Assembly (NCBI GenBank): GCA_047601445.1
Contig: JASGJH010000001.1
Location: 4,352,001-4,416,000, forward strand
Length of the DNA: 64,000 nt
Direction of reading: 5' to 3'
Source of the DNA: Myxococcales bacterium
Lineage (GTDB): Bacteria; Myxococcota_A; Polyangia; Polyangiales; DASUME01
The position numbers were made by a program, and so were the translations under genes. Numbering within the stretch: position 1 is the stretch's first letter; each line of letters starts with the position of its first letter. The notes beneath the pieces were generated by a model. The model did no database searches and was not told the DNA's origin. It saw only the letters and a program-made list of their open reading frames with translations. Below are positions 20,922 through 48,943 of this stretch, in pieces.

Positions 20922-22184
20922 ATGACAGATCTGACGGAGTTCCTGGATTTGCTCGCAGGTGATCCCCGGCTGCGCTCGGAGTTCGCCGCGGCACCGGCCG
21001 CGACACTCGCGCGCGCTGGTGTGAACACCGAAGGGCTCGAGCTTCCAGAACGCATGGATCTCGGGGATCTGGAAGAGCGCCTGAGCACGCTCGCTGAGGT
21101 TAGCGAAACCAGCCCGGTTGTCGCCGCAGCGTCGAGCGGCTTGCACACGCCGGTCTGGTCGGGCGCCGCCGCAGAGACAGCAGTTCCCGAAGCCTCACGG
21201 CGCCGGTTGCGCCGCGGGCGGCCGCTTCCTGGCATACATTGTCCGTCAAGACTCGAGAGCCGCCGTGAGGACGACTCGCGGGAGGCCGACGGTTCCTCCA
21301 ACCGTGGTGTCTCTCCTTTCAGGGGCGACGGTGAGGTCAAGAATCACCGCGCGGACGCCGGCCGAAAGCCATCAAAGGTCGAGAAGACTGCGGTCACCGA
21401 GGCGACGCCGTCGCTCAAGGGCGCATCGGAGGCCCCCCTGCCGGGCGCGTGGTTCGCGACGAACGGCACCGCGATCAGTCGCGCGCTCAGCATTCGTCCG
21501 CAGGGAGTCTCGATGGTGTCCGAGGCAATCTTCGGTCAGGACGATCGGCAGCACGTCCCCGATGCTTCAGCGCCACCCTACAGCTGGTTGTGCGCGCTCG
21601 TGATCACCGCTGGCAATGGTACCCGCTGGTTCGGCACCGGCTGGCTCGCAGGGCCGCGGCTCGTCGTCACTGCCGGACATTGTGTCTTCATGCCGACGCA
21701 GGGTGGGTGGGCTCGCGAGATCACGGTTCTGCCGGGTAGAAATGGCGCTTTGACCGAGCCGCGTATCCGCGCAAGCCAGTTTCACTCCGTGGAAGGCTGG
21801 GTAGTCAATGGACGGTCCGAGGTCGACTACGGAGCCATCGTACTGCCCGAGGGCTCGCTCGCGGCTGACTGGGGCTACTTCGGCTACGGCGCGCTCGACG
21901 ATGGCGAGCTGCTTGAGTCGCTTTTCAACATAGCCGGATATCCGATCGACAAGGAGCAGGGAACGCTGTGGGCTCAGGTCAACAATCTTCTGACGCTTTC
22001 AGGGGAAGTACTGATCTACGAGAATGACACCTACGGCGGCATGAGCGGATGTCCCGTCATTCGGTGGGACGAGTTGGACTACGTAGCTGTCGGAATCCAC
22101 AACTACGGTGACCTCGTAGGCAACCGCGCAACACGCATCAATCAATCCGTCTTCGACAACATCAATTTCTGGAAGACCTTGTGA
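20922..22184 (+). CDS. Trypsin-fold serine protease (V8/glutamyl endopeptidase-like) with NHLP-leader-like N-terminal domain
   Basis: Catalytic motifs TAGHC, DYGAI, DTYGGMSG; mature-start-like SE/AIFGQDDR. N-terminus LDLLAGDPRLRSEFAAAPAATLARAGV resembles NHLP-clan leaders. No signal peptide evident. Confidence 0.88.
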   Translation: MTDLTEFLDLLAGDPRLRSEFAAAPAATLARAGVNTEGLELPERMDLGDLEERLSTLAEVSETSPVVAAASSGLHTPVWSGAAAETAVPEASRRRLRRGRPLPGIHCPSRLESRREDDSREADGSSNRGVSPFRGDGEVKNHRADAGRKPSKVEKTAVTEATPSLKGASEAPLPGAWFATNGTAISRALSIRPQGVSMVSEAIFGQDDRQHVPDASAPPYSWLCALVITAGNGTRWFGTGWLAGPRLVVTAGHCVFMPTQGGWAREITVLPGRNGALTEPRIRASQFHSVEGWVVNGRSEVDYGAIVLPEGSLAADWGYFGYGALDDGELLESLFNIAGYPIDKEQGTLWAQVNNLLTLSGEVLIYENDTYGGMSGCPVIRWDELDYVAVGIHNYGDLVGNRATRINQSVFDNINFWKTL

Positions 22185-22197
22185 CAAGGAGCGGCCT

Positions 22198-23040
22198 GTG
22201 AACATTTACATTTGGGATGACGACACCACCGCAACCTCCACGCCCGAAGCTGGCTCGCTCAAAGCCACGCCCAACAGCGCGATGGCGACTGTCGCAGGCA
22301 CGATCGCCCGCCCAGGAGGGAGCGCAGCGTTCCTCGACATCCACTACCACGGAAAGGAAGGCATCTCCTCGCTGCCCTCGGCCACTGGTGCGGTCGCACG
22401 CCCGGGAGGCAGCGCGGCGTTCCTCGACATCCACTACCACGGAAAGGAAGGCATCTCCTCGCTGCCTGCGGCTGCGGCACGCCCAGAGGCCGGCGCAGCA
22501 GTCTCTGCCAGCAGCCTGGGCCGCGCAGCGGTCGCTGCACCGATACGCCCGGGAGGCAGCGCGGCGTTCCTCGACATCCACTACCACGGAAAGGAAGGCA
22601 TCTCCTCGCTGCCCTCGGCCACTGGTGCGGTCGCACGCCCGGGAGGCAGCGCGGCGTTCCTCGACATCCACTACCACGGAAAGGAAGGCATCTCCTCGCT
22701 GCCTGCGGCTACGGCACGCCCAGAGGCCGGCGCAGCAGTCTCTGCCAGCAGCCTGGGCCGCGCAGCGGTCGCTGCACCGACACGCCCGGGAGGCAGCGCG
22801 GCGTTCCTCGACATCCACTACCACGGAAAGGAAGGCATCTCCTCGCTGCCCTCGGCCACTGGTGCGGTCGCACGCCCGGGAGGCAGCGCGGCGTTCCTCG
22901 ACATCCACTACCACGGAAAGGAAGGCATCTCCTCGCTGCCTGCGGCTACGGCACGCCCAGAGGCCGGCGCGGACACCGGTGAGCCGTCCTCCGGCTCGCT
23001 ACACATCGGCGCGTCCCTCGACATTCATTTCGTGGGTTGA
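22198..23040 (+). CDS. Putative multi-core RiPP precursor peptide (280 aa, six identical cassettes)
   Basis: AAGGAG RBS then GTG; six copies of RPGGSAAFLDIHYHGKEGISSLP plus terminal ASLDIHFVG; its stop overlaps the start of the next radical SAM gene. Confidence 0.85.
   Translation: MNIYIWDDDTTATSTPEAGSLKATPNSAMATVAGTIARPGGSAAFLDIHYHGKEGISSLPSATGAVARPGGSAAFLDIHYHGKEGISSLPAAAARPEAGAAVSASSLGRAAVAAPIRPGGSAAFLDIHYHGKEGISSLPSATGAVARPGGSAAFLDIHYHGKEGISSLPAATARPEAGAAVSASSLGRAAVAAPTRPGGSAAFLDIHYHGKEGISSLPSATGAVARPGGSAAFLDIHYHGKEGISSLPAATARPEAGADTGEPSSGSLHIGASLDIHFVG
22309..22971 (+). repeat. Hierarchical tandem repeat: 237-bp unit, about 2.8 copies, each with two 69-bp cassettes 90 bp apart
   Basis: Cassette starts at 22309, 22399, 22546, 22636, 22783 and 22873. 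Confidence 0.97.
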
Positions 23041-25046
23041 TCGTGGCGGCGCCGACGATTGCGCTCGTCAGCATGCCGTTCAATGTCACCGTCATGCCGC
23101 CGATCGGGCTTGGAACCCTTAGCGCAATATTGCGTGAGGCTGGCCTGCCCTGCACGACATATCACCAGAACCTCGAGCTGCTACCGTGGCTTGGGGTGCC
23201 TCTCAATGAGGCTTCGGAGATCTTTGATGAGATCAGCTATCTGTGGGACTTCTTGCCTGGAGAATGGCTATTCTCGCCGCAGGTCTCGGCTGAACAGGAC
23301 GCCGCATACCTGCGGTCGCTCGACGAGGACGCCGGCGTGCGCCCGCAGCTCATCGAAGTTCTTGCCCAGCTGCGCAGGATCGCTCCGCATTTCATCGCGC
23401 GCTGCGCAAGCCAGATCGCTGACGCTGGGCATGACATCGTCGGCTTCACGAGCTCATTCATGCAGACCCAGCCGAGCCTCGCAGTGGCCCGGCACCTCAA
23501 GCAGCTGCGGCCGGAAGTAACGATCCTCTTTGGCGGCTCCAATGCCTTTGGGACCATGGGCCGCGCCGTGCTCGAATACTGCGATGCCATCGATGTGGTC
23601 GCCCACGGTGAAGCCGACCGCCTAATCGTCCCACTTGTGCACGCCTTGCGCGAAGGCACCAGCCTGCGGCAGCTACAAGGCATCTCCTATCGCGACGTCT
23701 CGGGCATCGTCGACCAGTCCGTCGACTCGACGCGCGTGGCGATGGACGACCTACCGGTCCCTGATTTCGATGACTACTTTTGCACTCTCGATCGGCTACG
23801 GAGAGACCATCGCCAGCCGCTGGATCTCCCGCGCTTCGTGCCCATCGAGACCGCACGCGGATGCTGGTGGGGCGAACGATCGCATTGCACCTTCTGCGGC
23901 CTCAACGCTGACCGCATGCGGTTCCGATCCAAATCGCCCGAGCGTGCGCTGCATGACTTCCGCGACCTCTACCGTCGATACGGGGTCGGCAACTTTTTCG
24001 CTGTCGACAACATCATTGATCACAAGTATTTCGACACTGTCCTCGCGAGTCTCGCCGAACAGCGTGAGCGCTTCTTCATCCACTACGAGATCAAGGCAAA
24101 CCTCTCGCGCAAGCAGGTCGAGTCGCTGTACGCAGCAGGGGTTCACAAGATCCAGCCGGGAATCGAGAGCCTGTCCACACCGGTGCTCAAGCTCATGCGC
24201 AAGGGTATCACTGCCCTGCAGAACATCCAGACGCTCCGCTGGCTCACGGAGCACGGCCTGCGGACCTCCTGGTACATGCTGTATGGCTTCCCCGGCGAGA
24301 ATCTAGCCGCGTACAAGGAGGTCGCGAATCTCCTGCCGCGCCTCACGCATATCGTACCGCCAAATGAGCTAGCGCCGGTCTACATCGAGCGCTTCAGCCC
24401 ATACCAGATGAGACCAGACCAGTACGGGATCCGGCTGACCGGTCCGGCGCGGTGGTATCGGCATGCCTTCCCCGGCATCGGTGACGATCAGCTCGCCGAG
24501 TTAGCCTATCGCTTTGAATACGAGGAGCCGGGCCGTGATCCCGCGCTCACCCGCTTCATCGAGCACGAGCTGCGGCCATTGCTGACCGCGTGGCAACGGC
24601 GCTACGCCGCTGAAGGGCCCACACTTGGCGTCATCCACGGCCCCGAAGAGTCGCTGCTGGTGCTAGGCCGCCTCACAAATCCGATTCGGGTGTTGCGGCT
24701 GGACGCACCCGTCGCTGCGGTGCTGCGGGCAGCGGATCAAATCGTCTCCGCAACGACGCTCGACAAACTCGGCGACGGCCCGGTCGGCGCAGTTAACGGT
24801 CCGATGCTTGACGAGGCTGACTACCATGTCGCGGTGCGGCGTCTCGCCGGCCGGGGCTTGTCCCTGGAAACGTCGACGCCAACGCCACTAGACCTGCGAG
24901 GCGCGGCACTGGTAGCGAAACTTGAGACACTAGGGCTTGTGTTGCAAGAGGGTAACCGAGTGCTGTCGCTTCCAATCAATTTGTCCCGCGTCGTCGAGCG
25001 CCAGAACGCGGCCGCGGTGCCGTTGGTGTCCAGTGCTGCCTACTAG
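23037..25046 (+). CDS. RiPP maturation B12-dependent radical SAM C-methyltransferase (TIGR03975/PoyB-PoyC-like)
   Basis: LVSMPF...PPIGLGTL, GEWLFS, VGFTSSFMQ, FGGSN, GEAD, ETARGCWWGERSHCTFCGLN (Cx7Cx2C), VDNI, IQPGIESL, ERFSP. Confidence 0.93.
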   Translation: MIVAAPTIALVSMPFNVTVMPPIGLGTLSAILREAGLPCTTYHQNLELLPWLGVPLNEASEIFDEISYLWDFLPGEWLFSPQVSAEQDAAYLRSLDEDAGVRPQLIEVLAQLRRIAPHFIARCASQIADAGHDIVGFTSSFMQTQPSLAVARHLKQLRPEVTILFGGSNAFGTMGRAVLEYCDAIDVVAHGEADRLIVPLVHALREGTSLRQLQGISYRDVSGIVDQSVDSTRVAMDDLPVPDFDDYFCTLDRLRRDHRQPLDLPRFVPIETARGCWWGERSHCTFCGLNADRMRFRSKSPERALHDFRDLYRRYGVGNFFAVDNIIDHKYFDTVLASLAEQRERFFIHYEIKANLSRKQVESLYAAGVHKIQPGIESLSTPVLKLMRKGITALQNIQTLRWLTEHGLRTSWYMLYGFPGENLAAYKEVANLLPRLTHIVPPNELAPVYIERFSPYQMRPDQYGIRLTGPARWYRHAFPGIGDDQLAELAYRFEYEEPGRDPALTRFIEHELRPLLTAWQRRYAAEGPTLGVIHGPEESLLVLGRLTNPIRVLRLDAPVAAVLRAADQIVSATTLDKLGDGPVGAVNGPMLDEADYHVAVRRLAGRGLSLETSTPTPLDLRGAALVAKLETLGLVLQEGNRVLSLPINLSRVVERQNAAAVPLVSSAAY

Positions 25047-27006
25047 TGCCCATAGCCTGCGGGTCGCGCTGGTCGAGATGCCGTTCGGGCCCGTGGCATG
25101 GCCGTCGATAGGCACCTCGGTACTCAAGCCGCAGCTGGCGCGGCGCGGCCACCGCGCCGAAGTTGTGTACCTCAACCAACTCATGCTCGAGCTCCTTGGG
25201 CCGCCGGACTCGGACACGGTTGGGCGATACCAGGCTATCTCAGACGCGTTCGGTGTTCATCTCGGCGAGTGGGTATTCGCCCGTGCCGCGTTCCCCGACT
25301 GCCGAGACCAGGCGGCACTCGATGACGAGTACCTCTCGCGGCTACGGACCGGCGGTTTCGATGCGGCGACGTTGTCGGCAGCCCTCGACCTTCGCGACCG
25401 CGCTGATGAGTTTCTGACCCGATGCCTTGCCGAAGTGCCGTGGTCCGACCTCGACGTAGTCGGCTTTGCCAACTCCTACTCTCAGCTCAACGCATCGCTA
25501 GCGCTCGCGCGACTGCTGAGCATGAGCTTCCCCGCGCTGCGCCTCATCATCGGCGGCTGCGGCTGCGCCGACGTCATGGGTGTGGCCACGTTGCGCGTAT
25601 GCGAGCACCTGTGCGCCGCAGTGCTGGGCGAAGGCGACGAGATCATCGCCGACCTCGCGGAGGCGGTCGTCAGCAACGACGAGGCGCGACTGCGCGCGAT
25701 ACCGGGCATCGCGTTTCGAAGTCACACCGGCAAGATTGAGCTCGGTGCACCTCAACGCCGCGTCACGGATCTCGACGCGCTCCCGGTGCCCGACTATAGC
25801 GATTACAGCCGCAATCTTGCGCCCGCACTCCGAACGTTCCTGCCTTTCTACATTCCCGTCGAGGCATCGCGCGGCTGCTGGTGGGGTGCGAAGCACCATT
25901 GCACATTTTGCGGACTCAACCCGCAGCGCATCTCCTACGCGCGTAAGGAACCGGCCCGTTTTCTCGCCGAGATCGCGACGCTTACGGCAACCTACCAGCC
26001 GCGCCGCTTTATGGCAGTCGACAACATCATGCCGCACGACTACCACACCGCGGTCATCCCAGAGCTGACTGAAAGCTCTGGAGGAGCCGAGTTCTTCTTC
26101 GAAGTGAAAGCCAACTTTCGCCGCGAGCAGCTCGAGGCTTTCACCCGCGCCAACGTGCGACAGATCCAACCCGGCATCGAAAGCCTGCGCACCCCGGTGC
26201 TGAAGCTGATGGAAAAGGGCACGACGGCGATCGCCAACGTCTACACGCTGCGTTTGTGCGAAGACCTCGGTGTGCGTGCCCACTGGTCTATCCTCTTCGG
26301 CTTCGCTGGCGAGACCCTCGACGACTACCGTGTCTCGAGTGAGCTCACCAGGCGCATTATGCATCTGCGGCCGCCGCTGGCGCTGGTGCCGGTTGAAGTC
26401 GAGCGCTTCTCACCGATGTACCGACGACCCGCCGAGCATGGGCTCACCGGTCTACGCCCCTCGACTTGGTACTACTTCTGTCACCCCGTCTCAGCGGAGG
26501 TGCTGGCAGACTTATCCTATCGCTTCGTCGCCGACTTCGTCGGCCGTCCGGCAGAGCTATCAAGCTCCATTACTACGATGCTGGAGCCGCTCGTAGAGCG
26601 TTGGCGAGCAAGCTACGGCGACGGTGCCCAGGCCCTGTGGACGCCGGCCGGGCGGAACCACGAGGTACGGCGCCGGGTCGGTGGCGAGGAATGGCGTTAC
26701 ATTCTCGACACGGTGTGTACGGCGCTGCTCGATGAACTGGACGAGCCGCGCGGCCTACGCGCCCTTTTCCCCCAAGCCGCGACCACCCTTCACGAACCGT
26801 ATCTCGATCCCGAGTTTCTGCGTACGGCCTCGTCAGCGATGTACGAGCGCGAGGTCACTCTGCGCGCCTCTTCGAAGGTTGACGCATACCAGCAGCTCCT
26901 ACGTCACGGACTGATCGTCCAGGAAAGCGGCCACGCGGTTAGTGTCGTTTGCCGGCGGAAGCCCTCTGCGCGGCGCGAGCTGCGCGTGCTCGCCGCAGAA
27001 CCGTAA
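25033..27006 (+). CDS. Second RiPP maturation B12-dependent radical SAM C-methyltransferase
   Basis: LVEMPF..WPSIG, GEWVFA, EASRGCWWGAKHHCTFCGLN, VDNI, IQPGIESL, ERFSP. Probable GTG start at 25033 overlaps the previous gene. Confidence 0.92.
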   Translation: MLPTSAHSLRVALVEMPFGPVAWPSIGTSVLKPQLARRGHRAEVVYLNQLMLELLGPPDSDTVGRYQAISDAFGVHLGEWVFARAAFPDCRDQAALDDEYLSRLRTGGFDAATLSAALDLRDRADEFLTRCLAEVPWSDLDVVGFANSYSQLNASLALARLLSMSFPALRLIIGGCGCADVMGVATLRVCEHLCAAVLGEGDEIIADLAEAVVSNDEARLRAIPGIAFRSHTGKIELGAPQRRVTDLDALPVPDYSDYSRNLAPALRTFLPFYIPVEASRGCWWGAKHHCTFCGLNPQRISYARKEPARFLAEIATLTATYQPRRFMAVDNIMPHDYHTAVIPELTESSGGAEFFFEVKANFRREQLEAFTRANVRQIQPGIESLRTPVLKLMEKGTTAIANVYTLRLCEDLGVRAHWSILFGFAGETLDDYRVSSELTRRIMHLRPPLALVPVEVERFSPMYRRPAEHGLTGLRPSTWYYFCHPVSAEVLADLSYRFVADFVGRPAELSSSITTMLEPLVERWRASYGDGAQALWTPAGRNHEVRRRVGGEEWRYILDTVCTALLDELDEPRGLRALFPQAATTLHEPYLDPEFLRTASSAMYEREVTLRASSKVDAYQQLLRHGLIVQESGHAVSVVCRRKPSARRELRVLAAEP

Positions 27007-27020
27007 CTCAGGAGGTAACG

Positions 27021-28079
27021 ATGGAGTCCGCAGTCCTTCTCACCACGATGCGCTGCAACATTCGCTGCGAGCACTGCTCGGTCGATTCCCACCCACACAG
27101 ACAGGAGCGCCTCGATCAGGCGCGCGCCCTCTCGCTCGTCGACGGCCTCAGCCGCATTCCTGGCCTCCGCTACATCGACGTAACCGGCGGCGAACCCATG
27201 CTCCACGCTGACGACGTCATTGCCATCGCTCGCGCAGCCCGCGCCCGTGGCAAGGCCGTTCGCCTGGTCAGCAACGGGTTTTGGGCCCACACGGTCGAGC
27301 GCGCCCGGGACACGCTGGTTGCTCTCAAGAATGCCGGGGTAACGTCAGTCGGACTGTCCGTCGACGAGTGGCACCTGCCCTTCATTCCACCGTCGACGAT
27401 TCACAACTACCTCGTTGCCTGCCGCGACGTTGGTCTCCTCCCCCTCCTCTCGTGCGTAGTCGCCGCCAGCGTGGGCGACGGAGATTGGCCGGCGAAGGTG
27501 ATCGAACTGCTTGCCCGTTACGGGATCGAACGCAGTTCCTGCGTCGAGCTGTACGCCTGGAGCCAGGGGCGCGAGTCCGACGCCGACGAGCGGGATGCGC
27601 GGGCCGGCGTAGTCCTCATCAACTGGCAGTTCCTTACGGGCGAGGGCCGCGCCCGCGACCTCGGTGTCCCGTCCCAGCCCATCAATGTTGCGCCAGACGA
27701 GCCGTGCCGCATGGCCGGCCGCCTCCCAACCATCGACGAGGCCGGTCGGCTCTTCCCCTGCTGCTCGCCATGGATTTCGCGCAAAGCCCACGCCCTCGCC
27801 GTCGTTACCGGCGACGATGTGCCGAGCGCCGTCGCCGCCATGCAACGCGAGCCCCTCGTCCAGGTCATCCATCGCATCGGTCCGCGCGCCATGCTCGAAG
27901 AGCTTCGTCGTCGAGGTTGGGCCCTCCCACACAACCAATCCGGCATTTGCAACCAGTGCGGCGTCATGCTCGACGCCGTCCCGCTCGCCGTCCTTCGCGA
28001 GGTCGCCGCCGAGCTCCTCCACGCCCGCGTCACGGTTGCCCTTGGCCTCCAGCCACGCACCAACCCGCCCCGCGCCTAA
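27021..28079 (+). CDS. Radical SAM protein, YydG/EpeE-like peptide epimerase candidate
   Basis: AGGAGG RBS; CNIRCEHC, TGGEP, SNGFWA, LSVDEWH, FPCCSP and C-terminal ICNQC. Radical SAM assignment is secure; epimerase function is inferred. Confidence 0.85.
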   Translation: MESAVLLTTMRCNIRCEHCSVDSHPHRQERLDQARALSLVDGLSRIPGLRYIDVTGGEPMLHADDVIAIARAARARGKAVRLVSNGFWAHTVERARDTLVALKNAGVTSVGLSVDEWHLPFIPPSTIHNYLVACRDVGLLPLLSCVVAASVGDGDWPAKVIELLARYGIERSSCVELYAWSQGRESDADERDARAGVVLINWQFLTGEGRARDLGVPSQPINVAPDEPCRMAGRLPTIDEAGRLFPCCSPWISRKAHALAVVTGDDVPSAVAAMQREPLVQVIHRIGPRAMLEELRRRGWALPHNQSGICNQCGVMLDAVPLAVLREVAAELLHARVTVALGLQPRTNPPRA

Positions 28080-28163: not shown

Positions 28164-30617
28164 CTAGGCCCTGCGCGCTGTCGCAATCCATTGCGTGGCG
28201 TGCGGGGTCGAACCGTCGGTACACGTTGAGGCCAGCTCCTCGCGGACGCGGTAGCCACGGCGGAGCCATCGGATACTGCCGTGAAGGTATTGTCGCACGA
28301 GCGTGTGAAGAGGCTCTTCAGCCCGAGGTCGACTTCGCCTCAGCTCCACCTGCTGAAAGCCAGCGCTTTCGAGCATGCTGCGGAGAGCCCCGCTAGTCAT
28401 CCCCATCGTCTTGGTCTTCACAGACTCGCCGCAGGCTTCATAAATGGCAGCATAGGCAGGGCTGTCTTGTGTCCAGACCCCTACGACCAGCCTACCCGAT
28501 GGCTCGAGAAGGTCGTGGAGCCGTGCAAGCGCCGTCCCGGCGTGCTCGCCAAGGTGTTGGATCAGGTGCTGCGCAAAGATCACGTCGTAGCGCTGCGCGG
28601 CTTGGACCTTGAGGACGTCGTTGACAGCGTACTCAATTTTGCGAGCGCCCCTGACCTCGTGCGCAACTCGAATGGCGTCGCGACTCGAATCGAATCCGTG
28701 GATTGCAGCGGAGCGGAATTTGTCAGCTGCGACGCGTGCAACGATGCCGGAACCGCAGCCCGCGTCCAAGATATATCGGGGCTTGGAGAGGTCGGAGCAA
28801 GCGTTCAACAGCTCCCTAGCGCACGGCAGGAACAGCGACTGTACCAGGCCGGCCTCCAGGTTGCGCTCCTTCACGAGCATGCTCGCGCGGTCGCGGTGTG
28901 CGCGTTGGCGCAGCACCGTGGCGAGCGCTTCGTTTCCCGCCAGTAGTTTGGCCGTTCCTTTCAGTTGGCTTTTCGCCTGCGCACCCTTAAGCAGAGACGA
29001 GAGTGCTCGAGGCTCGGTCCTATCGCCGTTGCTCAGCCTGACTTCGACGTGGTAGTCGTCCCAGGTGAAAAGCGACACGCGAAACGGCTGCTTCTTCTCG
29101 TGGCCGCGAAGAGCACGTCGCAGGAGCTGATAGCCCGAAGAACTCCTACGCCAGTACGTGACTTCGTCGACATCATCGGGTGCGTCCGCGATCCAGAGCT
29201 TGAGCTCGCGGCAGTAAAGTCTTGCCCCATTGTGCGAGCAATCGTCGACTACCCCTCCAGCCTCGACCACGATTCGGAACGAACCAGCGGGAGCAGGAGG
29301 AATTGCCTTGTGAGCCGCCCCGGTAATTGCCTCAGCCGCTTCAGGTCGCAGGCGTTCCGACTCGAGGTCGGCCGCCCCAGCCTGGCGTTGAAGCAGCGCG
29401 CTATGCAGCTTCGGAGAATGCTTCGCAAGAGGGCTCTCACCGCCCGTGCGGCAAACTACGCGGTGAAAGGCACGCGGTATCCCTTCACCGCGGAACGTAA
29501 CGAGATAGAGCGGCCCCTCCCGTCGTGTCTGGTCGAGGAGCACCACGTGATCGGGCTCTCCCTGCTCATAGCGAAACCGGCCCCCGCTGACGCGAAGCAC
29601 CCTCCAGGCGAGGAGGCGATGCAGCGGTTGCGTCCGAAAGGACATGGGGTTGGGGGAGCGTCCACGCCAGGTCACATCGATGCCTGGCCGCAGGTTACTC
29701 TCGAGAAACTCATCCAGATCCTTCCACGACGTCTTGAGCAACCCGTACTTCTCGAAAACCAACGCGGAGCGGTCGAGGCTATGGTGTTCGTTGCCTCCTG
29801 CCTCGGCCACCTTCCATTCGAGATCCACAATCGTTGTTCTCACCGGCTCGAGAATCGAGCAGGCGTGGTCAAGGAAGGGCCCGTGATCGAAGTTGACCAA
29901 CGTCGCCCGCAAGAAGTCCACGGCGCCCCCGTCTCCATCGCCACAGATCAACAGCTTTGTATGCTTGTCCAAGGTCTCGAGCGGATGCTGCGCCAACGCG
30001 TCCATCTGCCAGTAGGACAGGCGTGGCAGCGTGGGCAAGGTGCGCTCGATTCCGAATCCGAGCGCGAGCACCACCACTTCAGGCGGTTTCGGATACTTGC
30101 CGCCAGTGAGGCCCACGAGCTCGACTTTGCCGTCCCGTGTCAGGCGAAAGTCGGTGATCTGCCGCGGCATCGCGCCCATGAGTGCTTCGTACTGCGTGAC
30201 AATCTGCGTGCGTACGTCGTGGGCGCTTCCCGCGAACCAGTTCAGGATCGGCAGGTTCGCCGAAGCCATCGTACTATGCTCCGCGGGCCATTCGACGATG
30301 CGAGGATGCAGGAATCGATGGTGGCAACCTAGCTGCAGGTGCATCGGCTCAGCCGCGCGATCGAACACCTCGACCTTGGCACCAAGCACGCGAAGAGCAG
30401 CAGCACAGGTCAACCCACCAGCACCGGATCCAATGACCCATGCGCGCTTGCCCTCGACTAACTTGGCTTCATGGAGTGCCCAGACCAGATTGAGAGCGCG
30501 GCATTGCTGCGCCGCGACATTGATGCGCGGGCGGCGCTCGCTAAAGAGGACAAAGACGTTGTCACATCCATCCACCGAGGCTTCCTGCCTGAGCCGCTCG
30601 CTGTCGCTGTCCATCAT
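28164..30617 (-). CDS. FAD/NAD(P)-binding oxidoreductase fused to a pYEATS-like domain and a class I SAM methyltransferase
   Basis: QQCRALNL...VIGSGAGGLTCA (Rossmann), second site ICGDGDGG; middle LWIADAPDDVDEVTY...FRVSLFTWDDYHVEVRL; C-terminal ILDAGCGSG...GFDSS. Confidence 0.82.
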   Translation of the reverse strand: MMDSDSERLRQEASVDGCDNVFVLFSERRPRINVAAQQCRALNLVWALHEAKLVEGKRAWVIGSGAGGLTCAAALRVLGAKVEVFDRAAEPMHLQLGCHHRFLHPRIVEWPAEHSTMASANLPILNWFAGSAHDVRTQIVTQYEALMGAMPRQITDFRLTRDGKVELVGLTGGKYPKPPEVVVLALGFGIERTLPTLPRLSYWQMDALAQHPLETLDKHTKLLICGDGDGGAVDFLRATLVNFDHGPFLDHACSILEPVRTTIVDLEWKVAEAGGNEHHSLDRSALVFEKYGLLKTSWKDLDEFLESNLRPGIDVTWRGRSPNPMSFRTQPLHRLLAWRVLRVSGGRFRYEQGEPDHVVLLDQTRREGPLYLVTFRGEGIPRAFHRVVCRTGGESPLAKHSPKLHSALLQRQAGAADLESERLRPEAAEAITGAAHKAIPPAPAGSFRIVVEAGGVVDDCSHNGARLYCRELKLWIADAPDDVDEVTYWRRSSSGYQLLRRALRGHEKKQPFRVSLFTWDDYHVEVRLSNGDRTEPRALSSLLKGAQAKSQLKGTAKLLAGNEALATVLRQRAHRDRASMLVKERNLEAGLVQSLFLPCARELLNACSDLSKPRYILDAGCGSGIVARVAADKFRSAAIHGFDSSRDAIRVAHEVRGARKIEYAVNDVLKVQAAQRYDVIFAQHLIQHLGEHAGTALARLHDLLEPSGRLVVGVWTQDSPAYAAIYEACGESVKTKTMGMTSGALRSMLESAGFQQVELRRSRPRAEEPLHTLVRQYLHGSIRWLRRGYRVREELASTCTDGSTPHATQWIATARRA

Positions 30618-30968
30618 GCCATCGACCTCTTTGCCAGTTCCCTACATTGATTGGCACGCTCATGTCCTTACTTGTTTGAGCGCGAGCAAGAAATGCCTAA
30701 GCCGCGGCATTGCCTCTAGGACGCCGTGGTTCCCCGCGAGGAGTCGCTGCGCACAACGCCTCTCCGCGTTCCGAGAGCTGCTTCGCCAACGGACGCCCTC
30801 ATGAGCTCGGACCAGTCGGAAGCCAGCGCGAATCAGCGGCAGGGTCGCGAATAGTCAATCATTCGCCGTCGACTGGTCCGCCGTCGAATGATCCAGCGGC
30901 GAGTTTCGGTCGAGGGGAATTCAGCGCCGTGGCCCGCGTATGCCACCGCACTAGCCCTGGAGATCTGC

Positions 30969-32327
30969 GTGCCGCTCCCACGTGTGACCGCGAAACAGAT
31001 CCGCTACCTGGCTCTCGAAGGCGGTGGCGGCAAGGGAAACGCGTTCGCGGGTGCGCTACGCGCGCTGGCCGATCCGCGCGTAGGTGAAGACGGGCAGGGA
31101 ATCCTGCGCTTCGAGCGCTATCGCCCCGTGTCGTTGAAGGGCTTTTCTGGTGCATCGGCGGGCGCCATCACCAGCTGCATGCTGTCCTGTGGTTTCGATG
31201 GCGAAGAAATCATCGCCATCATGCGCGGACAGAACTTCGACGACTTCTTCGATCCGCTGCGCCCCGGCTACGTGCCTGCGGTCGGACGCTTTGTTGAGAA
31301 GCCCAAGGAGTCTGTGAACCGCGAGCTCCTCGCGCTCGTCAGCTCCCTCTGCAAGCTCCAGACTGGCATCGTGTCGATGCGTGATCTGGCACGAATCTTC
31401 GGCGAGCTCGGACGCTTCGAGCTGCAACGGTTCGGCTCAATCATCGGCGGGCTACTCGCGGTCTTCCCGACCCTTGCAAAGCAGCTCCCTGCCGCCGCAC
31501 GCGTGATCGGCGGAAACGTGGAGGCTGCCGGCCTCTCGCTCGTGCAGGACTTCGGCATCTTTCCGGGCGAGGCGGCGCGACGCTTCATTCACAAATGGGT
31601 CTCCATCGGCGCTGTGCGCGCCACCAGTCCTCAATGGATGGCTCAGATTCCAGGCTGGGATCACGTTGCCGGGGACAGTGTCGAGGCCAGGCGACAACGC
31701 ATTCACTTGTTGTCCGAACACTGGGGCCGCGATGGCAGCAAGTTTCCGATCAATCACGCGCTTTCGGGGATGACATTCGAGGAGCACCAGCGCACCTTCG
31801 GCGTCAAGCTCGCCGTGACAGGAACAGAGCTCGAGACGCTCAAGACACACGTCTTCAGCGCGAACACGACCCCCCAATTCCTGGTCGAGGATGCGGTTCG
31901 CATCTCGATGAGCTTGCCTGGGGTCTTCAAGCCCTATGTGATCCGCGGCGCAGACGCAGAGCGCGCATCGCGCGGAGCGATCGCATCGTTGGAAGGAGTG
32001 TGGGTCGACGGAGGCCTACTCAACAACCTACCGCTCCGAGTGTTCGACAACGAGCCCGGCGACAATCCGAAGACGCTCGGCTTGCGCTTGGGCCTCGAGG
32101 AGCGCACTCGCATCGACACGTTGGGCGACCTGTTGTCGGTCTGGCCGGTGAGCTTGGGCTTCTTGGGATCCGGCGAGTCACAAACCTCGTTCACGCTCGA
32201 CAACTACGATGCATCGGTGCTGCTCGATCCGTCACCGCTTGGACTGCTGGACTTCTCTGCATCGGACAGCGTCTTGGCCGACGTCCACCGCTCGGCGTTC
32301 AACGCAACACTGAGCTATTTCCGTTGA
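30969..32327 (+). CDS. Patatin-like phospholipase
   Basis: LEGGGGKG, GASAG nucleophile elbow, AVRISMSLP, VDGG. GGAG then GTG at 30969 is the likely start. Confidence 0.92.
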   Translation: MPLPRVTAKQIRYLALEGGGGKGNAFAGALRALADPRVGEDGQGILRFERYRPVSLKGFSGASAGAITSCMLSCGFDGEEIIAIMRGQNFDDFFDPLRPGYVPAVGRFVEKPKESVNRELLALVSSLCKLQTGIVSMRDLARIFGELGRFELQRFGSIIGGLLAVFPTLAKQLPAAARVIGGNVEAAGLSLVQDFGIFPGEAARRFIHKWVSIGAVRATSPQWMAQIPGWDHVAGDSVEARRQRIHLLSEHWGRDGSKFPINHALSGMTFEEHQRTFGVKLAVTGTELETLKTHVFSANTTPQFLVEDAVRISMSLPGVFKPYVIRGADAERASRGAIASLEGVWVDGGLLNNLPLRVFDNEPGDNPKTLGLRLGLEERTRIDTLGDLLSVWPVSLGFLGSGESQTSFTLDNYDASVLLDPSPLGLLDFSASDSVLADVHRSAFNATLSYFR

Positions 32328-32338
32328 AGGAGAGATCT

Positions 32339-35200
32339 ATGCACGAGTTATTTCGCTACATGTCGATGCGTCCTCCCGTTCAGCCCGACGATGATGCCGT
32401 CGTCTTGCTGCAACCGTCGCAACCGCTGCGCGCCAAGCTCGTCGCGGCGCGTTCCGATTCCAGGGCAGCCGTTCACAAGGTCGCGTCCGAGCATTTGCAA
32501 TCAAGCGCGGCGGCCCTTTCGGTGGACAGATTGGAGTCCGGTCGCGTGCTCGAACCGTTGGCGAAGCAGTTCATCGAAGCTGGTCAGCTTCGAGCTCAGG
32601 AACAGCTTGAAGCTGACCTCAAGAAGGCCCTTGGCGATCAGTGGAGCACCCACGTCACAGCACCAGGCTTTGCTCTCGAACAGCAACGTCTTGCAGACAC
32701 CTTGATCGCCGCCAAATTGTGCTCGACGGGCAGCTTGTGCGACCTCGACCTGCTCACTGCGCTCGCTTGCATCTACGAAGCGGCCGCGCGTCTGGCCGCG
32801 GGTGGTACGGCACACGTGCCCAGTATCGCTGTGATCGGAGACCTCGCTGCGGCGGCCACGCCCTCATCCCCCACCCGCGCGCAAGAGGAGTCCGCCGTCC
32901 CCCCTGCACCAAAGCCGGAGCTGGTCAGCCTGGAACGCGACGCGAACGATTTGCAGACCGCGCTTGACCGCTTGGGCAACTTGCCACTCCCAGACCTCGT
33001 AAAACTTCCTCACCGGCAGCTCAAGGCGCAGAGCGCAGTCACGAGCGAGCCGGGCTGCCGCACTTCGCCGGAATCCACGGCTCCCGTGCTGGATGTTCAG
33101 CGCGCCGCCGTCGATGCGTCGACGCCTTGGGAAGTGCGTTCGGAGTTCATCGACGACCTGCCGCGCTACGCGGCCACCCTCGCACGAAAGAGCCTTGCGG
33201 ACTCCAGTCGCGGCGACGTCGCAAGCCTCGCGGAGCTACTGCAGCGCGAGCAGGCCACGGTGCAGGCCAAGATTCGTTCACTGCGAGGTGACGATCCGAT
33301 GGCGGAGGCCGTGGTTTCACTCGGCAACAAGTTCTTCAAAGCCGGGACGCTCGGCAAGACGAGAGCGCCCAAAACGTCGGGCTTGCCTCAGGGCAGTGGA
33401 TCCCTTCGACCGGTCGGGGTCGCTGATCTGCTCGTCGTGCGCCAGCAGCTGACTTCCTACCAAGGCGGCGATGTCGCGCACATCGAGAATATCCTCAAGT
33501 CCGAAGAGCTGCACCGTGAGACCGAACGGCGCGAGAAGAGCGAGCAGTCGGTGTTGACGGAGACCGACGAGCTACGCGAAGAGGAACGTGACACCCAGAC
33601 CACCGAGCGCTTCTCACTGCAGCGCGAGACCGCCACCACCCTGGAGACCGATCTGTCGGTCAACGCAGGACTGGCCGTGACAGCGCGCTACGGGACCATG
33701 GTCGAGGTCCAAGCCAACGCCGGGTTCTCCTATCAGACCTCCAGCAGCGACTCGGTTCGCCAGTCGTCGGCGTACGGGAAGGACGTCGTGACCCGCGCGG
33801 CGACCAAGGTCTCCCGGCGTATGCGTGAGCTGCGAACCACCACCACCTCGATCGAGTTCCTGGAGCGCAACAAGCACGGCTTCCAGAACTCCGCGCCTGG
33901 CGCAACGCACATCAGCGGCGTCTACCAATGGGTCGACAAAGTGTCGGAGGCACAGGTCTACAACTACGGGAAGCGCATGATGTTTGATGTGATGCTCCCC
34001 GAGCCGGCCGCGTTCTTCGTCGCCGCACAGCAACAGCAGAGGACGGAAGGCGACAAGCTCGTCAAGCCGCCCACGTTCACGGCCAAGCCCAGCGACATCA
34101 CGGAGAGCAACTATCAGAGCCTGGCGCAGAGCTACGACGCCATCGGCATCGAGCCACCGCCACCGCTCTATTTGTTGTTGGCGAAGGCGATTGAGTTCAA
34201 CACCAATGGCGCGCAGGGCGCCACCTACGTGACCAAGGCCGATGCCATCCCTGTTACGGAGGGCTACGAGGCCATCGGCTGGGCGATCCGATGCTTATCG
34301 GGGGGCGCCGGCTCGAACAATGCGTACGTCTTCGTGGGGCGCGAGGCTTTCGACTCGAATGCACGACAAGCGACGAGTTGGACCCTGGCGGGGGAGACCT
34401 CTCAGGTTCCCATCGCGGTTGCAGGACTGAACCTGCTGCTGTTTGCTGCCACGATCGAGGTGCTGATTCGCCGCACCGAGCGCGCGATGGCCGTCTGGCG
34501 CCAGAAGACCCACGCCGCGATCGCCCAGGCCTACACCGCCAAGAAGGCCGAGTACGAGCGCGCACTTGCGTCGGCTGCAGCCGGGAGCACAGTGCAGATC
34601 AGCGGCCGCAATCCTGGCGCGAACAAGCGCCTCGTTCGGACGGAGCTGCGCAAGATGTGCTTGGCGCAGCTCACGGCACAGCAGTTCGACGCGTTCGGCG
34701 CAATCGAAACGTCCAGCCAAGGCTACCCCGAGGCGAACCTGGTCCAGAGCGAGCTGCAAGGCGAATACATTCGCTTCTTCGAGCAGGCATTCGAATGGGA
34801 CCAGCTGATGTACTTCTTCTACCCCTACTACTGGGGGATCAAAGAAGGTTGGCTGACCACCTCTCTGCTCGAGGACGTCGATCCGGAGTTCGGCGACTTC
34901 CTGCGTGCTGGCGAGGCGCGTGCCGTGTTTCCGGTCCGACCTGGATTCGAGAAGGCCGTGCTCCACTACCTCGACACCGGCGAGATTTGGAACGGCGGCA
35001 ACCCGCCCAAGATCACGAGCCGGATGTACGTACCGATTCTCGCCGAGCTCGAAGCCGCCAATGGTCCCGCGGCTGCGGAGAAGGCGCACGGTGACCCATG
35101 GGAAGTTCGCCTACCGACGACTCTCGTGCACTTGCGCGCGGACGATCGTCTTCCCAAGTGGAAGAAGACGAACGGCGTGTGGGGAGAAGATCTGACGTAG
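32339..35200 (+). CDS. Large uncharacterised protein (953 aa)
   Basis: AAGGAG RBS and ATG 11 bp after the patatin stop; blocks such as VGVADLLVVRQQL...VAHIENIL, YQWVDK, NYGKR, FFEQAFEW...FYPYYW. The ORF-track start at 31595 is a spurious overlap. Confidence 0.85.
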   Translation: MHELFRYMSMRPPVQPDDDAVVLLQPSQPLRAKLVAARSDSRAAVHKVASEHLQSSAAALSVDRLESGRVLEPLAKQFIEAGQLRAQEQLEADLKKALGDQWSTHVTAPGFALEQQRLADTLIAAKLCSTGSLCDLDLLTALACIYEAAARLAAGGTAHVPSIAVIGDLAAAATPSSPTRAQEESAVPPAPKPELVSLERDANDLQTALDRLGNLPLPDLVKLPHRQLKAQSAVTSEPGCRTSPESTAPVLDVQRAAVDASTPWEVRSEFIDDLPRYAATLARKSLADSSRGDVASLAELLQREQATVQAKIRSLRGDDPMAEAVVSLGNKFFKAGTLGKTRAPKTSGLPQGSGSLRPVGVADLLVVRQQLTSYQGGDVAHIENILKSEELHRETERREKSEQSVLTETDELREEERDTQTTERFSLQRETATTLETDLSVNAGLAVTARYGTMVEVQANAGFSYQTSSSDSVRQSSAYGKDVVTRAATKVSRRMRELRTTTTSIEFLERNKHGFQNSAPGATHISGVYQWVDKVSEAQVYNYGKRMMFDVMLPEPAAFFVAAQQQQRTEGDKLVKPPTFTAKPSDITESNYQSLAQSYDAIGIEPPPPLYLLLAKAIEFNTNGAQGATYVTKADAIPVTEGYEAIGWAIRCLSGGAGSNNAYVFVGREAFDSNARQATSWTLAGETSQVPIAVAGLNLLLFAATIEVLIRRTERAMAVWRQKTHAAIAQAYTAKKAEYERALASAAAGSTVQISGRNPGANKRLVRTELRKMCLAQLTAQQFDAFGAIETSSQGYPEANLVQSELQGEYIRFFEQAFEWDQLMYFFYPYYWGIKEGWLTTSLLEDVDPEFGDFLRAGEARAVFPVRPGFEKAVLHYLDTGEIWNGGNPPKITSRMYVPILAELEAANGPAAAEKAHGDPWEVRLPTTLVHLRADDRLPKWKKTNGVWGEDLT

Positions 35201-44791: not shown

Positions 44792-47128
44792 TCAGACCTT
44801 GCAGAATGGACTCGCGACGACCGCTGACACCTCATCTCGGTCGAGCGTAGGCAGCTCCTCGAGCGAAAGCGTGCTGCGCGCGGTCATCAGGCGCTCCTCC
44901 GCAACGTCTGCGACATGCCCGAGTCCGAGCACGTGTGCCACCTGATGTGCGAGGGTCCATTCAGTCGCGAGCGTGGCCGACACGACCGCACCCGGGCGGT
45001 CAGGAGGATGCAACGCGCAACCGGCCTGGGCGGGAACCAGGGTGCGCACGAAGTAGATGACGACGTCATCCGACTCGGCTCCGTCGCGGAGGTCGAAGAG
45101 GTCGACCTGAGCATCGCTCGGAGCATCCTCTCCAATAGCCAAGGTGTTGAAGCGAGCGAACACATCGTCTTCTTCGTCGTAGGTCTCCCTTGAAACTTCC
45201 ACCACGTCGACTTCGTACTGCGCGAACACGCGCTTTGCGTTGGCGAGCATCGCTTCGATTCGGATCTCGGGCGGCTCCTCGAACACCTTGAGGTGCAAGC
45301 GCACGGTGCTGCGCGCAAGCATGGCCTTCCAGAGGTTCGAGCCGGTCATCTGGATGCGCTCGAGCGGTCCTTCGGTGGTCGCCTGGTACCTCAGATTCCA
45401 GTAAAACTCTGAGCTCTCACCAGAGGTTGAGATGAAAGACTTGGTCGCTTCGAACAGCGGCAAAGCAAGGTCCATGATGCCGACCGGATAGGCCGAGCCG
45501 TGGTGGAAGACTGGCTGCCAAACACCGGGCTGCACGTCCTTGCACGACGCAGCGTAGACGAAGTGGTTGTTGGCCCGGAGCTCAAGCTTGACCTCCTGGT
45601 TCAGAGGAACCATCGGACTGCCCAGGAGCTGGTAGGGCTTCCCGGTGCCTGCAAACTGAGAGACCGTGTCCTCTTTGAAGCCCATCAGCGGATACTTGTT
45701 GAAGACGCTTTTTTGGTTCTCGAACTCCAAGCCCCAACGCCAGTGCGTATGCACGCAGTCATGCTCGCACACAGGCGCCATCCCAATGGAGTCGATGGTA
45801 AGCTGCCACCTATCCTCAGCGAGCTCCTTATTGCCAATCAGACGGTGTGCCTTCATGCGAGGTGACAAGTGCAGACTGTCAAACGCACCCTGGCGTGGCA
45901 GCTTGATGATGTCGCGCTGAACGAACGGCATGAACCACGATTTCTTCAAATTATCCGGCAAGAGGTATGAGCTGAGTCCCTCCTTGTACATCACCGTGCG
46001 CAGGCTCGGACGCGTTAGCAAGATCTCACCGACAGCCGGCGCGAGCTTCGCTAGCTCGGAGGGGAGAAATCTTGACCACTGCAATATCCGCATTGACACG
46101 TCAAACGCGACCTTCGAGTAGTCGAGATGCTCCAGTAGCCTGGACAGCTTCCGTCGGCCGGTCGAGTAGTCGACCACAGTGCAAGGGTTCTCAAAGGGAA
46201 TGGTAGGAGAGATATAGTCGAACAACAGATCCCAGTATGGGAGAGCGGCGATGTTCAGAGGATCGGTGGTCCGCGTGACGTTCGACTCGGTGACAAGAAG
46301 TGGGCGGATCTCCGGATCCATGTCTGGGTGACCCAAGCTCTTCGATGGCCTGGCTACTCCGTAGTAGCCCGCCTTGAAGGGGCGCATAATCGAAATCTTG
46401 GTCTGGAGCGCCTCCTTCCCCGCTATCGACTGGTTCGACATGATCATCAGGTGGGGGTAGAAGCGCCCCATGCCGACGGTTCCCGTTGGCTCGAAGTCGG
46501 CGCGCTCTTTCATGCAGACCAGACTGAGTACGACGCATATTAGGTGTTGCGCGCCCGGTTGAGTGGTTCCCGGGTCAGGCATGAATGTAGGAGCTTCGAA
46601 GTCTGCCGCTGCGGCGGGCGTGGGTTCCTTGTTCTTCAGTGTTGTAACGTTGTATGCGAACGCCGCAGCGAAGCTTTGATCCAGGGTGGCAGGGATGGGC
46701 CACCACGGATTGGTACCCGCGTTGGAGCCGTCTGGAAGCATTAGTCCTTTGACGAAGTAGCGCTGGGTTAGCGGAAGCTCGACCGTCCCCGTGGCCGTCC
46801 GCACGGAGATCGGACCAAAATTCACACTCATCGCTACGGTCATCCAGCCCTCGATGGCGTTGCCGTGCATCGCGGCCATGCTTCGCGACCACACCTCGAG
46901 TTGCCCGACTCGATTCATCGGGGCGTCTAGATCGAATGGTTTGAGAGCTTCAGAGTAGTCCCAGAACCAGATCGGAAGACTTGCAGGGGCTGAGGCTAAC
47001 GGAAGTTTAGGAGTCAAACGCTGGACTGGAAGAGTCGATCCACGTCCGAAGTTTCGGATCTTGCTTAGATCCCCGCCAGCTCCGATTCTGACCAGCGTGT
47101 CGTCCAAGATCTTGTCTAGACTCGGCAT
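44792..47128 (-). CDS. Uncharacterised protein with C-terminal zincin-like domain (HQxxHxxGxxH)
   Basis: GGAGG RBS; C-terminal TVRLHLKV...TLAHQVAHVLGLGH...RLMT; an internal CEHDCVHTHWRW cluster. Confidence 0.8.
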   Translation of the reverse strand: MPSLDKILDDTLVRIGAGGDLSKIRNFGRGSTLPVQRLTPKLPLASAPASLPIWFWDYSEALKPFDLDAPMNRVGQLEVWSRSMAAMHGNAIEGWMTVAMSVNFGPISVRTATGTVELPLTQRYFVKGLMLPDGSNAGTNPWWPIPATLDQSFAAAFAYNVTTLKNKEPTPAAAADFEAPTFMPDPGTTQPGAQHLICVVLSLVCMKERADFEPTGTVGMGRFYPHLMIMSNQSIAGKEALQTKISIMRPFKAGYYGVARPSKSLGHPDMDPEIRPLLVTESNVTRTTDPLNIAALPYWDLLFDYISPTIPFENPCTVVDYSTGRRKLSRLLEHLDYSKVAFDVSMRILQWSRFLPSELAKLAPAVGEILLTRPSLRTVMYKEGLSSYLLPDNLKKSWFMPFVQRDIIKLPRQGAFDSLHLSPRMKAHRLIGNKELAEDRWQLTIDSIGMAPVCEHDCVHTHWRWGLEFENQKSVFNKYPLMGFKEDTVSQFAGTGKPYQLLGSPMVPLNQEVKLELRANNHFVYAASCKDVQPGVWQPVFHHGSAYPVGIMDLALPLFEATKSFISTSGESSEFYWNLRYQATTEGPLERIQMTGSNLWKAMLARSTVRLHLKVFEEPPEIRIEAMLANAKRVFAQYEVDVVEVSRETYDEEDDVFARFNTLAIGEDAPSDAQVDLFDLRDGAESDDVVIYFVRTLVPAQAGCALHPPDRPGAVVSATLATEWTLAHQVAHVLGLGHVADVAEERLMTARSTLSLEELPTLDRDEVSAVVASPFCKV

Positions 47129-47189
47129 GAACACCTCCAAGGCGAGCCGTGAGGACGCCTCATTCGACCACTGGTACGGGACTCCAGCT

Positions 47190-48941: not shown

Positions 48942-48943
48942 GG

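Follow-up and report, generated by a model that had tools for sequence, protein, structure and literature searches.

A probable new family of RiPP operons with a multi-core precursor, two B12-dependent radical SAM methyltransferases, an EpeE-like enzyme and an S1 protease

What is made by an operon in which the gene of a repetitive protein stands between a serine protease gene and three genes of radical S-adenosylmethionine (SAM) enzymes? The question is raised by a five-gene cassette in the genome of Myxococcales bacterium GCA_047601445.1, within a 64-kb window (by which we mean the whole stretch of 64,000 nucleotides analyzed, positions 4,352,001 to 4,416,000 of contig JASGJH010000001.1). 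[quoted passage not shown] An initial annotation had described five co-oriented genes with overlaps or gaps of at most 14 bp, and we confirm both the coordinates (Table 1) and the junctions, all on the + strand: the first two genes lie 13 bp apart, the next two junctions are overlaps of 4 and 14 bp, and 14 bp separate the last two genes. The repetitive open reading frame (ORF) of 280 aa that it had placed between the protease and the radical SAM genes does consist of six identical units, which supports a multi-core RiPP-type operon. As also claimed, none of the five genes encodes a transporter or an immunity protein.

The precursor and its cores

The precursor carries its six identical GGSAAFLDIHYHGKEG units in three 237-nt DNA repeats, the second and third being 98% and 84% identical to the first, and an AGGAG motif lies upstream of its gene. 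The cores read G-S-A-A-F-L-D-I-H-Y-H-G-K and are separated by spacers of Ala, Ser, Gly and Pro. In a set of 22 precursors with 114 cores, the consensus G-x-A-A-F-L-D-I-H-Y-H-G is near-constant while spacers and copy number drift, with divergent spacer sequences and 2 to 8 cores per precursor. The most frequent 12-mers among these 114 cores are GSAAFLDIHYHG (37) and GQAAFLDIHYHG (13). D, I and Y are found in 103/103 cores matched in 19 precursors by a regular expression into which they are partly built, and positions outside the expression are also near-fixed: G(-4) in 97/103, A(-1) in 102/103 and G(+7) in 99/103. The constraint acts on the peptide, since the stretch F/L-L-D-I-H-Y-H-G shows synonymous variation at all eight codon positions (30 cores from five loci read as DNA) and the gene frame is the only one free of stops across all five precursor loci. 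The same synonymous drift of the core codons rules out a repeat kept at the DNA or RNA level.

A second subtype (proteins P0023, P0175, P0177 and P0178) has the core A-A-F-L-D-I-N-Y-G-K, from which both His are absent, and a different C-terminal hairpin motif. Strand-like motifs are kept at the precursor termini in both subtypes: the N-terminus is often half a core (I-H-Y-H-G or I-H-F-H) and the C-terminus often an L-H-I-G strand followed by a degenerate core. The AlphaFold model of the window precursor is of low confidence (mean predicted local distance difference test, pLDDT, 55.8; core blocks about 70-77). It places all cores and both termini in beta-strands and resembles parallel solenoids in a fold search of low specificity (best Z 8.8). 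If the core is a strand, Asp/His/His would lie on one face and Leu/Ile/Tyr on the other.

Glu follows every core of the window precursor, whose strict cleavage at Glu is predicted to give six core-bearing pieces of 37, 30, 36, 30, 36 and 30 residues. Across the family, long spacers contain Glu in 27/27 cases, frequently in the form E-S/A-A/G ahead of a stretch rich in Ser, short spacers stay within a narrow range of 25-33 residues, and Asp or Glu is present in 82 of the 84 spacers of a 19-sequence set. The residue after a spacer Glu is A, S or G in 111/164 cases (background 45%), a count over related sequences and hence no independent test. No leader family of Pfam or NCBIfam matches the precursor; its Pfam matches to CBM_56 and DUF3188 were rejected, no stretch passing alone. 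The ESM Atlas gave no usable match to it, a plasmid search matched neither the precursor nor the epimerase-like enzyme, and no viral contig was confirmed.

The modifying enzymes

The two B12-dependent methyltransferases, MT1 and MT2, score 546.7 and 472.1 bits with TIGR03975, well above the curated cut-off of 281.85, which bears out their initial assignment as Cx7Cx2C B12 C-methyltransferases; the motif is present in 28/28 MT1 and in the window MT2. With the Pfam B12-binding model MT1 has a match under the cut-off and MT2 has none. The structural model of MT1 (pLDDT 91.5) matches the B12 radical SAM enzymes OxsB, TsrM and TokK, including the fold of the B12 domain. MT1 and MT2 are 37% identical to each other and 47-53% identical to their own orthologues. 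They fall in separate, well-supported clades (29 sequences with support 0.997 for MT1; 6 with support 1.0 for MT2) and have thus both been retained since an old split, which suggests, by analogy with PoyB/PoyC and the bottromycin enzymes, that they have different targets. In the same tree, a sister clade of about 23 methyltransferases (the P0083-P0118 group) adjoins MT1. The C-terminal domain of MT1 is modelled as three strands followed by helices, the order expected of a RiPP recognition element (RRE) from the pattern described in PMC8326336 (this and the other sources below are cited from the parts available to us). A predicted complex of this domain with the protease N-terminus scored 0.01, the mark being 0.32.

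The top PDB matches of the last enzyme are the EpeE/YydG structures (E 3e-36), the next one standing at 8e-8. Its P-C-C motif, found in 28 of the 29 members of this EpeE-like family, aligns with the H-donor Cys of EpeE, C223 (PMC13012085), if a 25-residue offset is taken for the tagged chain, and the C-terminal CxxC aligns too. EpeE acts on Val and Ile (PMC13012085, PMC8326336). On present evidence from its sequence, the enzyme is likely to work like EpeE, though it is not classed as a member of the YydG family.

The protease and its N-terminal domain

The initial annotation had rightly named the first gene a serine protease; it had missed both the resemblance to Glu-specific S1 enzymes and the weakly NHLP-leader-like N-terminus. 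The closest solved structure is the Bacillus glutamyl endopeptidase 1p3c (E 3.3e-19). An N-terminal NHLP-leader-like domain is followed by a long, poorly conserved propeptide and by the catalytic domain from about residue 202. The triad (H253, D302, S375), the equivalents of Thr190 and His213 in the S1 pocket, and a Glu-Ala pair just ahead of the catalytic domain are present in 5/5 orthologues. Thr190 and His213 are typical of glutamyl endopeptidases, which mature by removal of a propeptide (PMC5508998). No signal peptide is obvious by inspection, and the protein looks like a cytoplasmic Glu-specific S1 enzyme. The serine proteases known in RiPP maturation are of the S8 and S9 families only, according to the available text of a 2026 study (PMC12957482).

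Residues 1-60 of the protease match NHLP-clan models weakly (TIGR04509, 22.6 bits, under the cut-off of 34). They are 35% identical over 55 residues to an NHLP-type leader of a distant cluster, L102, a score reached by 0 of 2000 shuffles. In the three Rhodobacteraceae proteases the same comparison gave scores not above those of shuffles, and the profile-profile probability was 3.7%. The ESM Atlas yielded leads only, at 0.82, for this N-terminus. The protease of locus L013 lacks the NHLP-like domain, a loss that may be secondary; the minus strand upstream (L013:1-294) resembles by eye the start of an insertion sequence transposase, with no Pfam match.

Cluster L102 itself (L102:8202-17492, G1051:C218) encodes an EpeE-like enzyme, two TIGR03975 enzymes, a TIGR03891-domain protein and two NHLP-type precursors, in which a Val/Ala-rich segment after G-G-G-E precedes a conserved C-terminal domain. 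It resembles a proteusin system whose epimerase would be of the EpeE type and not of the PoyD type, and the best matches of its methyltransferases fall outside the MT1 and MT2 clades.

Conservation and distribution

Homologous enzyme trios without an adjacent repeat gene would have spoken against the initial proposal, but a repeat precursor does stand in the homologous loci. MT1, compared with species-representative genomes, identified three loci, all in Rhodobacteraceae: a metagenome-assembled genome (MAG) of Pseudophaeobacter, Rhodobacter maris JA276 and Yoonia sp. R78084. Metagenomes were scanned with the alignment of the epimerase-like enzyme, and 80 of 275 confirmed stretches were covered. 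Six of these were close homologues, three of which (L011, L015 and L016) were too short to contain the upstream genes. The scan added L013 together with L014, a partial copy of it; their precursor family also counts a protein from a Burkholderiaceae MAG. The order protease, repeat gene, MT1, MT2, EpeE-like gene is kept in all four external loci that cover the region (L002, L003, L013 and L001, the last being the same as L012). By sequence, the recurrence of the cassette together with its core is more than chance.

Protein searches returned 18 precursor homologues and 28 close homologues of the EpeE-like enzyme. For 11 precursor matches on contigs of at least 8 kb, the longest contig is equal in size to one with an epimerase-like match in 8 and with an MT1 match in 9, an indirect pointer to linkage of the three genes. 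The epimerase-like family was found in 0/400 genomes of the window's class, in 1/400 of its phylum (a distant homologue) and in 2/401 of the family around genome G062. Among 60 relatives, three carry a TIGR03975 gene, at loci (L008-L010) without the core motif. The cassette is thus rare and patchy, a pattern that fits horizontal spread. Flanking genes differ between loci and no exporter accompanies the cassette.

Proposed pathway and alternatives

In the pathway that we favour, the precursor would present its six identical cores between spacers. MT1 and MT2 would draw on SAM and methylcobalamin for the C-methylation of unactivated carbons in every core, and each would probably have a target residue of its own; the likeliest sites, to judge from PoyB/C, the RMTs of bottromycin and MpcB, are Ile, Phe, Leu and Asp. 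The EpeE-like enzyme would abstract a C-alpha hydrogen and return one from C248, leaving one or two D-residues per core, with Ile as a first guess taken from EpeE. Presumably after these steps, the S1 protease, self-activated at its conserved Glu-Ala, would cut the precursor after the spacer Glu. Pieces from orthologues would hold one to four cores, and further trimming may occur at Asp or by housekeeping peptidases, the modified core being protected. Since the operon has no exporter, the cell probably retains the product, internally or on its surface. As to its role, the one that we think likeliest, though with little confidence, is that of a beta-strand peptide that resists proteases, associates with itself and, in the HYHG subtype, binds a divalent metal through its Asp/His/His face.

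Several observations weigh against this reading or narrow it. The best NCBIfam match of the last enzyme is indeed YydG (TIGR04078), at 102.3 bits and far from the cut-off of 300, so that the epimerase-like label of the initial annotation stands for an EpeE-like protein with a Cys in the H-donor position but not for membership of the YydG family, and the P-C-C motif could alternatively serve other twitch-domain chemistry. Glu is present in 29 of the 65 short spacers family-wide; uniform release of single cores by the protease alone fails in most orthologues, which may release multi-core pieces because many of their short spacers lack it. The earlier idea of many short peptide copies per polyprotein therefore agrees with the window precursor, where Glu follows every core, better than with the family. 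His213 and Thr190 are common to Gln-specific enzymes (PMC5508998) and are not proof of Glu specificity. The D-I-N-Y-G subtype is without both His, which disfavours metal binding as a family-wide role and means that the 'His-rich' character once proposed is not universal. Finally, Pfam, PDB sequence and whole-protein fold searches did not name an RRE in the C-terminal domain of MT1.

The repeat protein could instead be a modified beta-stack, scaffold or fibril, largely intact or in multi-core pieces, with the cores stacked in parallel, the terminal motifs as caps and a protease that trims the Glu-rich long spacers, in the spirit of HxsA, which is matured by radical SAM enzymes. Such a stack would agree with the modelled strands of every core and both termini in a solenoid-like arrangement, with the half-core N-terminus, the strand and degenerate core at the C-terminus and the strand-like ends of both subtypes, and with short spacers that are tight in length and mostly without Glu. 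We nevertheless find it unlikely: the model has a low mean pLDDT and predictors are prone to stacking identical repeats, the precursors differ freely in copy number and in the sequence of their spacers, Glu follows each core in the window, and the termini could equally be strands for enzyme recognition. It is more improbable still that the RiPP logic holds with a third radical SAM enzyme that is no epimerase and cross-links F-L-D like the three-residue cyclophane enzymes, or performs other C-alpha radical chemistry. Three-residue cyclophane motifs take an aromatic-x-Asp-like form, and the core does hold an F-x-D motif and several aromatic residues; the score far under the YydG cut-off also points this way. 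Yet EpeE is by far the closest structure, its N-terminal and C-terminal Cys regions both being aligned, and no SPASM cyclophane family is among the best 25 NCBIfam matches listed.

In another alternative, the repeat gene would be decaying or a bystander, with enzymes that act elsewhere, for instance on the NHLP-like N-terminus and propeptide of the protease as a fused precursor; in its favour, the protease N-terminus resembles the NHLP-clan precursor leaders that stand beside a similar enzyme trio in L102. We regard this as highly improbable, as no core is conserved in the propeptide, whereas strong constraint at the protein level acts on the repeat cores, which in every locus read are placed between the protease and MT1. 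A split-leader RiPP design is quite unlikely in its full form: an NHLP-type leader would have moved from the substrate onto the self-activating Glu-specific protease and would dock it on the methyltransferases, or activate these in trans, with the result that cutting comes after modification, and the leaderless substrate would become C-methylated, D-residue-containing beta-strands stacked as a His/Asp metal-binding sheet or fibril.

Comparison with known systems

Among the proteusins, polytheonamide (PoyA-D) combines two Cx7Cx2C B12 C-methyltransferases, PoyB and PoyC of TIGR03975, with a radical SAM epimerase (PMC11285071, PMC8326336), a set resembling that of this operon with its probable epimerase, and a weakly NHLP-like element may be present here as well. 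Unlike in proteusins, the precursor has no NHLP or Nif11 leader, the weak NHLP-like segment sitting on the protease; polytheonamide has one long aliphatic core whereas the cores here are many, identical and polar/aromatic; and the probable epimerase is of the EpeE type, which has no significant homology to the PoyD type of proteusins (PMC8326336). The epipeptides (EpeX/EpeE, YydF/YydG) provide the closest solved structure and share the H-donor-position Cys and the C-terminal Cys pattern, but here there is no EpeX-like short precursor, membrane protease or ABC exporter, and two methyltransferases are added. Clavusporins (mpc) share a Cx7Cx2C B12 enzyme, a serine protease gene within the operon and C-methylation of the peptide, which is predicted here (bioRxiv 10.1101/2024.01.23.576971). 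They differ in having a single aliphatic 13-mer core in a 39-mer, an S9 protease, a transporter, and one methyltransferase with DUF5825, with no epimer mentioned in the available text, whereas our operon has an S1 protease, two full methyltransferases, six cores and no transporter. By its sequence, the operon thus belongs to none of these three classes as they are defined.

Partial likenesses extend further. Bottromycin RMT1-3 are several B12 C-methyltransferases whose target residues, Phe among them, are separate (PMC11285071), but bottromycin combines one core with a follower, and its YcaO enzymes are not in the operon. In WprA/B/P and TvgA/B, repeated motifs are uniformly modified by a radical SAM enzyme (PMC12957482, PMC9062424), and WprA is uniformly cut by a serine protease (PMC12957482), WprP, which is S9 and not S1. 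These systems make cross-links or cyclopropanes with other types of radical SAM enzymes, and the available texts do not describe B12 methyltransferases or an epimerase in them. In HXS (HxsA-D), His-containing repeats are matured by radical SAM enzymes and the repeat protein is processed (PMC13128918), but the enzymes differ and HxsA is periplasmic with a peptidoglycan-binding domain, so the analogy serves only the beta-stack alternative. The protease shares with glutamyl endopeptidases (V8; BIGEP, 1p3c) the fold, the triad, Thr190/His213 and a propeptide that ends just ahead of a conserved mature N-terminus; it differs in its lack of an evident signal peptide, its NHLP-like N-terminal domain and its location in a RiPP operon. 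More than one core per precursor is also found in pheganomycin, which has two. Pheganomycin is B12-methylated (bioRxiv 10.1101/2024.01.23.576971).

The initial annotation knew of no characterised class that combines these parts, and we too found no description in the literature covered: a search for DIHYHG, the gene combination, the core and the S1 protease gave nothing, with most subscription journals and supplements outside its coverage, and the available parts of PMC9811515 and PMC12858407 have nothing on the operon family. Each ingredient has precedent, and a new RiPP family is probable. It would offer a compact four-enzyme route to peptides that bear both C-methyl groups and D-residues, each precursor supplying several identical copies of the substrate. 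If our reading is true, an S1 glutamyl endopeptidase joins the RiPP proteases, and EpeE-type epimerases and TIGR03975 enzymes are extended to a polar, aromatic core without Val. That bacteria so distant share an invariant core implies some specific target or assembly. One locus is in a named cultured species, Rhodobacter maris JA276, which makes the chemistry directly testable.

Genomic setting and variants of the cassette

Table 1. Features of the cassette, in window coordinates.
Feature	Position	Strand	Basis or remark
S1 serine protease, glutamyl-endopeptidase type, 420 aa	20922..22184	+	structure match 1p3c and alignment
NHLP/IniB-like N-terminal domain of protease	20922..21101	+	weak match, under family cut-offs
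Multi-core precursor of 280 aa with six identical cores and beta-strand-like motifs at both termini	22198..23040	+	
Core 1 (GSAAFLDIHYHG)	22318..22353	+	
Core 2	22408..22443	+	
Core 3	22555..22590	+	
Core 4	22645..22680	+	
Core 5	22792..22827	+	
Core 6	22882..22917	+	
Precursor C-terminal motif: L-H-I-G strand and degenerate seventh core	22993..23040	+	kept in most HYHG-type precursors
Three tandem 237-nt DNA repeats	22309..23019	+	recent expansion of two-core module
MT1, B12-dependent radical SAM C-methyltransferase, 669 aa	23037..25046	+	TIGR03975, Cx7Cx2C, C-terminal RRE-like domain of three strands plus helices
MT2, B12-dependent radical SAM C-methyltransferase	~25033..27006	+	TIGR03975; GTG start inferred
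EpeE/YydG-like radical SAM enzyme, 352 aa, probable epimerase	27021..28079	+	CxxxCxxC, C229, P-C247-C248, C310-x-x-C313

The host genome is a single contig of 9.5 Mb, in which MT1 and MT2 are the only TIGR03975 genes above the cut-off and the precursor locus is the only one; cobS (CobS) is also encoded. No sigma-70-like promoter was found at the operon, and terminator-like sites there are not commoner than in shuffled sequence. Upstream, a gene for a sugar ABC substrate-binding protein ends 835 bp from the cassette. Downstream, the neighbour is convergent: an 817-aa fusion of a FAD/NAD-binding-like N-terminus and a class I methyltransferase (28164-30617, - strand), which is not found beside the other loci. 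Farther along the window are a patatin-like gene followed by a large ORF without NCBIfam match (30888-35200, +) and, in a row, several large unannotated ORFs that are similar in style (44792-60005, -).

Flanking genes were rejected as functional partners since those of one locus are absent from the others. This applies to the TonB-dependent receptor and the AraC regulator directly upstream of the cassette in L001 (2309-5384), seen in that locus only. A separate radical SAM/SPASM gene, whose best match is PapB-like and under the cut-off, lies just upstream of the Yoonia cassette (L003:3761-5224). In L013/L014 a gene for a retropepsin-like aspartyl protease comes after the EpeE-like gene (L013:7241-8281) and could encode a second processing protease. 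Finally, a JmjC-domain gene (Pfam match) is directly 3' of the EpeE-like gene in L015 (923-2017), and L011 (1165-1618) has a similar-looking truncated start; these neighbours suggest variants with added hydroxylation.

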